Shown here: piece by piece, positions 14,059 to 17,445 of the stretch
Layout: each line of letters begins with the position of its first letter
Position numbering within the stretch: position 1 is the first letter of the stretch
Assembly: GCA_002344125.1 (NCBI GenBank)
Contig: DDTQ01000006.1
Location: forward strand, 275,581 to 339,580
Length of the DNA: 64,000 bases
Direction: 5' to 3'
From: Ignavibacteria bacterium UBA2360
GTDB lineage: Bacteria > Bacteroidota > Ignavibacteria > Tepidaquicellales > OLB5
Made by a program: the position numbers and the translations under genes
The notes under the pieces: model-generated
What the model saw: only the letters and a program-made list of their open reading frames with translations
Told to the model about the DNA's origin: nothing
Database searches by the model: none

Positions 14059-14320
14059 ACTCATCGGCTGACTTAGAGTCATCCGATGAGTTTTAAGTTC
14101 TCCCCGTTGTTGGTCTTGTGACCAACAACTATATGTTTCCGCAGAGTCTCTCGTTTTTTGAGGACTCTGCGGATTAACTAAATAAGCCAACACTCATCGG
14201 ATGACTCCAAGTCATCCGATGAGTATTTCACCATCGAGAGCCGTAGTACATTCCCAAACTGGAGTTTGGGAATGAGAAGGAAGAATTTACATTAAGCGCT
14301 TCGACTCCGCTCAGCGCGAC
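14059..14320. repeat. Cluster of six hairpins (five families) between convergent ssb and pyrB
   Basis: 14059-14091 and 14192-14224 (ACTCATCGG.TGAC-N5-GTCATCCGATGAGT), 14106-14129, 14138-14173, 14249-14274 (CATTCCCAAACT-GG-AGTTTGGGAATG) and 14296-14320. Confidence 0.85.
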
Positions 14321-14331
14321 TGTTTATACTA

Positions 14332-14359
14332 TAAAAGCCTCTATTCATAGAGGCTTTTA
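14332..14359. terminator. Bidirectional terminator after pyrB
   Basis: Perfect 13-bp arms TAAAAGCCTCTAT-TC-ATAGAGGCTTTTA. Confidence 0.8.
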
Positions 14360-14381
14360 TGTTTATTTATAATATACTTAG

Positions 14382-15449
14382 CTATTTATAGTTCAGGATA
14401 TATCCATCTTCTTTGAAGATGTGCGCTATGAGCGCTGTACGCATCCAAAGTCCGTTGACTTCCTGCTTCCAGTACCATGCGCGCTGGTCTTTATCAATTT
14501 CCGGGGGAATCTCATTCCGGCGGGGGAGCGGATGCAGTATCACTGCATCGGACTTCATTTGACGCAATAACGCTGATTTCAGGTAAAATGTGGTGTAATC
14601 TATGGTTTTCGATTCATGCTGCTTATCATATTCATCCTGTATCCTGGTATAATAAAATACATCAGCTTTTTTTATGTATTTTTCAAGGTTATCTGATTCT
14701 TCAAAACTAATCTTTTCCTTAAGCAGATATGCCCTTATATCATCGGGTATTTTAAGTTCCTCAGGTGATAAAAATACGAACTTAATGCCATCAAAATTAC
14801 TGAGCATGTAAACCAGCGACCGCACGGCTCTGCCGCGCTTGAGATCACCGATAATTGCAATTGTTTTATTCTTTACCTTACCTTTAAAGGCTCTGCATAA
14901 CGTGTAAACATCAAGCAATGCCTGTGTTGGGTGCTCATGTGGACCCGATCCGGCATTGATTATCGGTATCGGTTTATCGGAATTGTTAAACATCAGCGCG
15001 GCTTTTTCGGCTAGATTCTCCTCAACGTGGCGCATAATTATCATATCTGTGTATGAGTGCATCGTTTCAAGGGTATCTTCAATGGATTCACCCTTAACTT
15101 CGCTGGAATAACCCGCTGAGCGCATATCGCTTGTTTTAATGCCGAGTATTTGACACGCATTATTGAATGATAAGTAAGTTCGGGTTGATGGCTGCGCAAA
15201 ATACAGCACTGCGCGCTTATGTGAAAGTATGGACTGTAAGAAATCCAGCCCGTCTTTCGTCTTTGCTATCTTTCTGATGCGGTCAGCAAGCTCAAACAGT
15301 CCATACAGCTCACTGCGGCTGAACTGCTGCGCGGAAAGAACGTGATATATTCTGCCTGAGGCGAGAAGCTTAAGCCGTTTTTTTTCGCTCAGCTTTTCAG
15401 CTTCTCCCCAGGTACTTATTTTACTTTTTTGTGAAATTTTCTTAACCGT
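14382..15449 (-). CDS. pyrB: Aspartate carbamoyltransferase catalytic subunit (start inferred at ACG 15449; the ORF track starts at GTG 15209)
   Basis: PSTRT, HPTQALLD, GDLKRGRAVRSL, YYTRIQ and HPLPR (ATCase-type) motifs. The frame stays open upstream through an HVLSAQQFSRSEL segment homologous to the PyrB N-terminus. Confidence 0.88.
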   Translation of the reverse strand, partial: TVKKISQKSKISTWGEAEKLSEKKRLKLLASGRIYHVLSAQQFSRSELYGLFELADRIRKIAKTKDGLDFLQSILSHKRAVLYFAQPSTRTYLSFNNACQILGIKTSDMRSAGYSSEVKGESIEDTLETMHSYTDMIIMRHVEENLAEKAALMFNNSDKPIPIINAGSGPHEHPTQALLDVYTLCRAFKGKVKNKTIAIIGDLKRGRAVRSLVYMLSNFDGIKFVFLSPEELKIPDDIRAYLLKEKISFEESDNLEKYIKKADVFYYTRIQDEYDKQHESKTIDYTTFYLKSALLRQMKSDAVILHPLPRRNEIPPEIDKDQRAWYWKQEVNGLWMRTALIAHIFKEDGYILNYK

Positions 15450-15459
15450 AGTTTATATT

Positions 15460-16794
15460 TTATTTATATTTTTTAATAAATTCAGTTAAAATCTGTGTTA
15501 AGTCAGGTCTGCCAACTTCCTGCAGATCGTAATCGATCCTTACAGCAGGTTTATTGATCTTTATAACACGTCTCAGGTCAATTGGAGTGCCAATAATGAC
15601 GGCGTCACACGGTACTTTGTTGATTGTCGTTTCAAGATCCTTCATCTGCTTATCGCCGTATCCCATTGCCGGAAGCAAAATGCCGATTCCCGGGTATTTA
15701 TCATAGGTATCTTTGATGCTCTTTACAGCGTAGGGTCTCGGGTCAATGACCCCGGCAGCTTCAAATTTCTGCGCTGCAATTGTACCTGCGCCGTATTTCA
15801 TTTCGCCATGCGTTAAAGTGGGACCGTCTTCAACAACAAGAACTCTCTTAACGCGAATTAACTTAATATCATTTGGATTTTCAAGTGAAATAGGGGAGGC
15901 TGCTTCAACTATTTTTGCAGTTGGATTAAGCTTTAACACATTATCTCTAACTGTATTAATTTGCTCCAAATTAGCGGAATCTATTTTATTGATTACTATC
16001 ACATCAGCTAAATGAATATTCGTCCTGCCGGGATAGTAACTCATTTCGTGTCCGGCCCTGTGGGGGTCAACGACTGTTATGGTTAAATCAGATTTATAAA
16101 ATGACATATCATTATTTCCGCCATCCCATATTATAACATCAGCCTCTTTTTCAGCTTCGCGAAGTATAGCTTCGTAATCTACTCCGGCGTAAATAACGTT
16201 TCCGCGTGAAATATGCGGCTCATATTCTTCCATTTCTTCGATGGTACAATCGTGTTTTTTCAGATCGCTTATAGCTGCAAAACGCTGAACTTTCTGTTTG
16301 GCTAAGTCACCATACGGCATTGGATGCCTTACGGAAACCGTATTCAAACCGAGTCTTTGTAATACATCAACAACTTTGCGGGAGGTCTGGCTTTTGCCTG
16401 CACCCGTACGGCTTGCAACCACTGCAATAACCGGCTTTGTGGATTTCACCATTGTATTTGCGGCTCCCAGTGTAATGAAATCTGCTCCGGCGGCGTTAAC
16501 CATTGCTCCTTTTGCCATTACATACGGAAAGGGGACATCTGAATAGGAAAATATTACCTGGTTAACTTTGAATTTTTTTATAAGTTCCGGTAAGTCTGAT
16601 TCAGGGTGAATTGGTATGCCTTTGGGATAAAGCTTTCCGGCAAGACTTGCCGGGTATTTACGGTCATCTATGTTTGGAATTTGTGTTGCTGTGAAAGCCA
16701 CAACATTATATAACGGGTTGTTGCGGTAAACAACATTGAAGTTGTGGAAATCTCTTCCGGCAGCGCCCATGATGATAACATTAATTTTAGTCAT
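15460..16794 (-). CDS. COG2403 P-loop protein (annotated as cyclic 2,3-diphosphoglycerate synthetase-like; arginine synthetase ArcE-like)
   Basis: IMGAAGRDFHNFN, AFTATQIP, P-loop RTGAGKS, RHPMPYG, WDGGNND and VEDGPTLTHG motifs. Confidence 0.8.
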   Translation of the reverse strand: MTKINVIIMGAAGRDFHNFNVVYRNNPLYNVVAFTATQIPNIDDRKYPASLAGKLYPKGIPIHPESDLPELIKKFKVNQVIFSYSDVPFPYVMAKGAMVNAAGADFITLGAANTMVKSTKPVIAVVASRTGAGKSQTSRKVVDVLQRLGLNTVSVRHPMPYGDLAKQKVQRFAAISDLKKHDCTIEEMEEYEPHISRGNVIYAGVDYEAILREAEKEADVIIWDGGNNDMSFYKSDLTITVVDPHRAGHEMSYYPGRTNIHLADVIVINKIDSANLEQINTVRDNVLKLNPTAKIVEAASPISLENPNDIKLIRVKRVLVVEDGPTLTHGEMKYGAGTIAAQKFEAAGVIDPRPYAVKSIKDTYDKYPGIGILLPAMGYGDKQMKDLETTINKVPCDAVIIGTPIDLRRVIKINKPAVRIDYDLQEVGRPDLTQILTEFIKKYK

Positions 16795-16974: not shown

Positions 16975-17445
16975 TTATTTCAGCACAGGCGCATAATTTC
17001 CCAGCTTCAGCTCGTCGATCTGTTTAACTTTAAAATCCAGCGACTCATTTTTCAGCTTTTTTTGTAAAATATTATTATTTACGTGTATTTGGAGTCTGCA
17101 CTGATCAAAATACTCCTTTAAGCCTTCAACTTTCAGTCTGATTGTCTCTGATGCGTTTATTGCGTCTGCATCAGCGGGAAATCTGAAGCTGTTGGCATAA
17201 TCAATATGAGCATTCACGTCGGTAACAAATACGTTGAGTGTATCCATATCCTTCAATATCAATTCTTCTGTAGCGTCGTTTTGATAGCTTTGCATAAGCC
17301 TGAACTGAGCCTGCTCACGGTAAAACATGGAATCAAGCTTGGCCAGTGCGAACTGCCAATCGGCTTTCCAGTCACTTTGAGAAAATATATTTGAAGAAAT
17401 TACAGCAGATAAAAATATAGACAGATATATAAAATATTTCAGCAT
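16975..17445 (-). CDS. Hypothetical secreted helical protein
   Basis: 156-aa ORF with a signal-peptide-like N-terminus; no recognised motif. Confidence 0.7.
   Translation of the reverse strand: MLKYFIYLSIFLSAVISSNIFSQSDWKADWQFALAKLDSMFYREQAQFRLMQSYQNDATEELILKDMDTLNVFVTDVNAHIDYANSFRFPADADAINASETIRLKVEGLKEYFDQCRLQIHVNNNILQKKLKNESLDFKVKQIDELKLGNYAPVLK

Follow-up and report, generated by a model that had tools for sequence, protein, structure and literature searches.

The arginine synthetase gene arcE is kept beside pyrB without ornithine carbamoyltransferase in a genus of Ignavibacteria

In Ignavibacteria bacterium UBA2360, a gene for the arginine synthetase ArcE precedes pyrB, the gene for the catalytic chain of aspartate carbamoyltransferase (ATCase). 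The link between the two genes appears to be historical, not functional, and ArcE has been kept in the absence of ornithine carbamoyltransferase (OTC), where it is probably paired with a citrulline hydrolase. The evidence comes from the order of genes in sister genera, the conservation of ArcE and PyrB, and the co-occurrence of ArcE with citrulline hydrolases.

Layout of the arcE-pyrB locus

The window is the whole stretch of DNA that was analysed, 64,000 nucleotides of contig DDTQ01000006.1. It contains two co-directional minus-strand ORFs, arcE and then pyrB, with a gap of 7 bases between the arcE stop and the open frame of pyrB, which extends from 15452 to 14382. An earlier note on this DNA had described the two-gene arrangement and the motifs GAAGRDFHNFN, HPLPR and YYTRIQ, all of which we confirmed in the two ORFs. 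The features of the locus are as follows.

15460..16794, minus strand: arcE, 444 aa, orthologue of arginine synthetase (ATP-forming arginine deiminase)
14382..15437, minus strand: pyrB, about 351 aa, ATCase catalytic chain with a probable non-AUG start
15435..15437, minus strand: probable ATT start codon of pyrB, with ACG at 15449 as the alternative
15438..15459, minus strand: arcE-pyrB junction, where sister genera have arcC and argF
14330..14361, no strand assigned: 14-pair hairpin, 20 nt beyond the pyrB stop

The hairpin is a probable terminator that would separate the convergent genes ssb and pyrB; it is a consensus match, of a kind found 6 times against 2.9 expected in shuffles. A promoter scan around the locus gave matches at chance level. 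The ssb/pyrB intergenic stretch at 14065-14230, which is much shorter in relatives, carries imperfect palindromic repeats, and hairpins of 18 and 10 pairs lie at 14189-14227 and 14106-14129, respectively. Most congeners carry, immediately before arcE, a conserved 156-aa ORF (16975-17445 in the window) that has a signal-like N-terminal region and matches no family; sister genera lack it at that position. Near-identical DNA has been found in bioreactor sludge in several studies, a Chlorobi bacterium OLB5 protein is a homologue with 89% identity, and RNA contigs at the locus are patchy and come from relatives at 90-95% identity.

arcE encodes an intact arginine synthetase

The arcE product carries the motifs GAAGRDFHNFN, GAGKS (Walker A), WDGGNND and NKID, and in Pfam it gives only a weak CobW-type match. 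It is 62% identical across 439 aa to Thermococcales ArcE, the reference being metagenome orthologues fetched with the published TK2200 primer (PMC13260591 supplement) and not TK2200 itself. The N-terminus of these reference sequences fits the TK2200 forward primer, and their C-terminus nearly fits the reverse primer. In addition, ArcE is 73-76% identical to the ArcEs encoded by arcE-arcC-argF-pyrB operons of sister genera, and in a quick tree, built without an outgroup of cyclic 2,3-diphosphoglycerate (cDPG) synthetases, the ArcEs of the genus form a clade nested among sister-genus ArcEs of arcE-arcC-argF operons. Because the tree lacks that outgroup, the grouping with ArcE rests on pairwise identity.

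ArcE proteins are often misnamed cDPG synthetase in databases. The cDPG synthetase of PDB entry 9sxb is a distant P-loop relative, of which about 100 residues can be aligned with ArcE (E value 4e-5). Set against the 439-residue alignment to ArcE, this short and weak match rules out a cDPG synthetase identity and bears out the family assignment of the earlier note. Judged by its sequence, ArcE of this genome adds a new bacterial member to a family that was described only recently. To our knowledge, no substrate-bound ArcE structure exists.

The protein has been closely conserved. All 164 family-invariant columns, defined by a conservation of 95% or more across 98 outgroup rows, one of which duplicates the query, are unchanged in ArcE (164/164), and the three genus-fixed differences (Q79, T152 and E345) all fall at columns that vary elsewhere. 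ArcE is intact in 17 of the 21 genus members, and pairwise arcE dN/dS inside the genus is 0.03-0.06 (about 0.05), compared with 0.04 for an OTC-bearing sister pair. arcE is under strong purifying selection in a genus without OTC, and ArcE appears free of decay or altered specificity. In G025, arcE (L197:4528-5875) is split into two overlapping frames, by a frameshift or an assembly error.

pyrB encodes a genuine ATCase

The neighbour of arcE had been read as ATCase and not OTC, and the profile scores agree: the pyrB product passes the TIGR00670 equivalog cut-off for ATCase (265.6 > 236.95) and falls below the OTC cut-off (101.9 < 280.85). It carries the motifs STRT, YYTRIQ and HPLPR, and it keeps S52, T53, R54, T55, S80, K84, R105, H134, Q137 and R167, as well as R229, Q231, E233, P266-L267-P268 and R296. 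The contacts to carbamoyl phosphate and aspartate known from the E. coli enzyme are all retained as far as they were checked, those of the aspartate site included. The OTC motifs HCLP and SMG are absent from PyrB, which excludes a bifunctional ATCase/OTC. Taken on these signatures, pyrB is a genuine ATCase gene, and as the single PF02729 match it is the sole transcarbamylase gene of the genome. pyrC, pyrD, pyrE and pyrF are present in the genome, and pyrI was not found there.

The best PDB match of PyrB is the plant homotrimer Arabidopsis PYRB (PDB 6ypo; PMC7878868), at 234 bits against 189 for the next family. PyrB shares all catalytic and aspartate-binding residues with the Arabidopsis enzyme, and differs from it at three points: the Glu of FxExSTRT is replaced by Gln, the N-terminus is extended by 30 residues, and translation probably begins at an isoleucine codon. 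Arabidopsis F161 is needed for UMP feedback inhibition (PMC7878868); PyrB has Tyr at this position (CP-loop, window about 15110-15130), and Ser or Thr takes its place in several congeners and sister genera. ATCase look-alikes adjoining arcC, with K84, Q231 or E233 altered, occur in L077, L125, L138 and L142. PyrB, with its residues intact, is not an arcC-linked look-alike that has lost aspartate-binding residues.

The gene pair is very probably a remnant of a four-gene operon

The order arcE-arcC-argF-pyrB is found in six genomes from five sister genera (G022, G023, G024, G026, G027 and G029), and in G022 the four-gene operon occupies the same locus as arcE-pyrB here, flanked by nuoK/nuoL and ssb. 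The arcE-pyrB adjacency is retained in 16 clade genomes, while G004 has lost arcE at the locus. Across a class sample of 251 genomes, with co-occurrence tables counted by hand, OTC accompanies ArcE in 137 of the 153 ArcE-bearing genomes. Given the four-gene order in sister genera and this association, loss of arcC and argF is the simplest history, and the arcE-pyrB pair is very probably what remained of arcE-arcC-argF-pyrB after that loss in the genus ancestor. The linkage to which the earlier note drew attention is conserved across the genus and not unique to this genome, but as a remnant of the longer operon.

The 99.95% complete genome yielded no OTC, arcC, arginine deiminase, argG, argH, argB or argC, and OTC and arcC are absent from all 20 congeners, one of them a 2-contig, 100% complete assembly. 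carAB, the remaining item in the earlier note's list of genes to look for alongside argF, arcC and argG/argH, is present: carB (1500 bits) and carA (440 bits) are intact, adjacent and above their cut-offs. ArcE and PyrB would now serve unconnected pathways, with PyrB making carbamoyl-aspartate from CarAB-supplied carbamoyl phosphate.

pyrB probably starts at an isoleucine codon

The first canonical in-frame codon of pyrB is GTG at 15209, 81 codons in. This GTG is an implausible start, as the match to the family already starts some 45 codons before it and initiation there would cut off a conserved N-terminal strand and helix of PyrB. No ATG, GTG or TTG lies upstream of the conserved PyrB N-terminus in 16 of the 17 OTC-less clade genomes, this one included; a canonical start precedes the conserved Trp in 1/17 OTC-less family members versus 15/15 other homologues. 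Specifically, 13 of the 17 OTC-less members have ATA, ATC or ATT exactly 9 codons before this Trp, and in two OTC-less genomes, where an in-frame stop lies 11 codons upstream of the Trp, ACA or ATC is the sole remaining choice. The conserved isoleucine codon and the upstream stops therefore favour ATT 15437 over ACG 15449, the higher-scoring codon for initiation context (6.95 vs 2.09) in a comparison that does not separate the two, and pyrB probably starts at ATT 15437. The genome lacks a Shine-Dalgarno signal, and the canonical start is delayed by at least 80 codons in 4 of its 2673 long ORFs.

An assembly error at the start is excluded by an independent assembly, identical over 15214-16182 with zero differences, and by the lack of a canonical start in 16 of the 17 genomes. 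An ArcE-PyrB fusion, through readthrough or frameshift, is excluded by the frame offset between the genes, which varies among congeners. The change of start coincides with the loss of arcC and argF. In G004, which has no arcE at the locus, pyrB has an ATG 6 codons after the conserved Trp. Further probable non-canonical starts in this genome (G000) belong to a Kup-like potassium transporter (C5:27762-29702), an oxidoreductase-like ORF (C12:133349-134443) and infC (C10:105165-105824), all motif-based names. A literature search for pyrB with a non-AUG start found nothing.

ArcE and a citrulline hydrolase

Without OTC, ArcE may act together with CtlX: arginine, ADP and Pi would be converted by ArcE to citrulline, NH3 and ATP, and CtlX would hydrolyse the citrulline to ornithine, CO2 and NH3. 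The net yield would be one ATP per arginine and no carbamoyl phosphate. Gene content, synteny, residue conservation, selection and co-occurrence, all directly observed, are the basis for this reading, which we hold to have about an even chance of being right; the direction of flux, the coupling of ArcE to CtlX and the chemistry of CtlX we infer. The Keq of ArcE is about 10 (PMC11032458), and since ArcE works near equilibrium, irreversible removal of citrulline would tip the reaction towards ATP, with CtlX pulling the ArcE step forward.

CtlX is encoded on the same contig, outside the window (C11:166776-167648 of G000), and scores above the NF046062 cut-off (354 > 334). The protein has the motifs FPNN and HTN (Asn-substituted) and a C-terminal Cys motif; CtlX is defined by signature motifs (PMC9007349), and this member shares FPNN and HTN with the putative citrullinase described there. 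CtlX was proposed in that study to hydrolyse citrulline to ornithine on genetic support only, and the activity is biochemically unproven even for the founding members (PMC9007349). Its role there is the use of external citrulline, with the gene beside ocd or aruG in organisms that have arginine deiminase or arginase (PMC9007349). Unlike those cases, ctlX occurs here in an ArcE genome and is unlinked to arcE, and a CtlX acting downstream of ArcE is not described in that paper; a literature search for arginine synthetase with citrullinase found nothing.

The co-occurrence of ArcE with hydrolases follows the presence of OTC. ArcE without OTC is found in 16 of the 153 ArcE-bearing genomes, which are close kin and probably reflect 2-3 independent events, and 14 of these 16 encode a PF19420 hydrolase, versus 3 weak matches in the 137 genomes with both ArcE and OTC. 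Nine of the 14 hydrolases are CtlX and five (one partial) are ArgZ/DDAH-like, a type that comes nearest to dimethylargininase and the ArgZ arginine dihydrolase domain but scores below the cut-offs of both. The 61 closest genomes show the same pattern: an above-cut-off PF19420 hydrolase is encoded in 0/20 with OTC and 35/41 without OTC. In G058, pyrB of the same type is immediately preceded by an ArgZ/DDAH-like gene (L199:4565-6511), and arcE, arcC and OTC were not found in that genome.

Several observations weigh against the ArcE-CtlX route. ctlX lies about 123 kb from arcE, and ctlX was found within 5 kb of arcE in 0/80 other arcE loci, so a physical arcE-ctlX linkage is rejected. The independent events are few, and arginase, which is also encoded in the genome, gives ornithine without ArcE. 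Five genomes from two other families, along with G004, G028 and G042, have CtlX but no ArcE, and for this reason the mutual exclusion of CtlX and OTC may be no more than a way to avoid a futile cycle. As for a Ctu-type citrullinase, the genome has four carbon-nitrogen hydrolase matches as candidates; of the three checked, none scores above any family cut-off.

The main rival to the ArcE-CtlX route is citrulline salvage, in which an arginine auxotroph would use ArcE mainly to make arginine, in a single step, from imported citrulline, NH3 and ATP, and CtlX would take the excess. The genome has no argG, argH, argB or argC, and a clear above-cut-off argG match was found in only 1/61 relatives; arginase, moreover, already handles the conversion of arginine to ornithine. 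The DNA comes from bioreactor sludge, which is often ammonium-rich. T. kodakarensis ArcE supports growth on citrulline given ammonium (PMC11032458), but the same source reports a poor ammonia affinity for the archaeal enzyme, with a Ks of about 110 mM ammonium sulfate. ArcE would also have to share its citrulline with an irreversible citrullinase, and we consider salvage a fair but less likely role.

It is less likely still that ArcE works alone, gaining one ATP from each arginine while citrulline is excreted and CtlX is unrelated. Such a role would suit the occurrence of CtlX without ArcE in other genomes and the three ArcE-bearing congeners, G001, G006 and G018, in which no ctlX match was found, but these three assemblies are fragmented (140-430 contigs), and a hydrolase accompanies ArcE in 14 of the 16 genomes without OTC. 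We further regard as very improbable a new PyrB-linked substrate for ArcE, for example in the interconversion of carbamoyl-aspartate and guanidinosuccinate. The ureido-to-guanidino chemistry would be analogous and arcE adjoins pyrB in the 16 clade genomes; however, synteny accounts for the adjacency, the genus-fixed differences number just three, and T. kodakarensis ArcE is strict for L-arginine (PMC11032458). The other substrate that the earlier note had allowed for thus lacks support, all 164 invariant columns being retained.

Arginine as a proposed source of carbamoyl phosphate

In T. kodakarensis, a route from arginine through carbamoyl phosphate to pyrimidines was shown genetically in 2026, and it needs ArcE and OTC in the absence of CPS (PMC13260591). 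The genome analysed here resembles T. kodakarensis, with its ArcE (TK2200) and ArcE-ArcB-ArcC pathway (PMC11032458, PMC13260591), in its full-length ArcE orthologue and in a host without ArgG/ArgH and arginine deiminase. It differs in having CarAB but neither ArcB (OTC) nor ArcC, so that arginine would yield neither carbamoyl phosphate nor a second ATP. The parts consulted of the two papers do not take up an ArcE that lacks OTC as a partner.

The earlier note's suggestion that arginine catabolism supplies carbamoyl phosphate for pyrimidine synthesis fails in this genome, because no OTC is encoded and carAB is intact. Nor does the genus offer support, with carB present and carAB intact in 21/21 members. 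The supply could be rescued if PyrB or an unrecognised enzyme phosphorolysed citrulline, a supply that has its precedent in T. kodakarensis (PMC13260591) and is plausible for carB-less relatives, but PyrB retains every aspartate-site residue and has neither OTC motif; for this genome we consider the idea largely refuted and the least credible of those weighed.

The arginine-to-pyrimidine route may hold in carB-less relatives. carB was not found in nine sister-family genomes with arcE, arcC and pyrB, eight of them with OTC, and the ancestral arcE-arcC-argF-pyrB order therefore fits such a route. The nine are G030, G031, G032, G034, G035, G038, G039, G053 and G059; G030 also gives no OTC match, possibly through an assembly gap. 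In an OTC-less branch of the sister family (G033, G036, G040-G045, G049-G051 and G054-G058), carB lies in two separately located halves. Independent arcE-pyrB-pyrI operons occur in L096, L115, L122, L139 and L146, mostly Bacteroidales-labelled. carB is undetected in 4/5 of these genomes, whose assembly completeness is not established, and the four carB-less ones encode OTC, with or without arcC, at other places in the genome. These Bacteroidales-type genomes are good candidates for a bacterial arginine-to-pyrimidine route of the Thermococcus type.

Implications

The arcE-pyrB pair carries a caution for annotation: it resembles an arginine-to-pyrimidine link and is here a deletion scar. The conserved non-AUG start likewise explains how pyrB is easily miscalled 80 residues short. 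In a wider and more tentative reading, to which we give somewhat less than an even chance, ArcE and a citrulline hydrolase (CtlX, or the ArgZ/DDAH-like type in the sister family) would have replaced ArcB/ArcC more than once in this Ignavibacteria order, giving one ATP per arginine and no carbamoyl phosphate, and the conserved isoleucine-codon start, arising from the same rearrangement, would damp pyrB translation or couple it behind arcE.

The characterisation of ArcE dates back only to 2024 and to a single archaeon, always in the company of OTC. The genus offers a direct test of CtlX, the activity of which is unproven. Its ArcE, kept under purifying selection across the whole genus without OTC or arcC, indicates that the enzyme is useful outside the pathway for which it was named.
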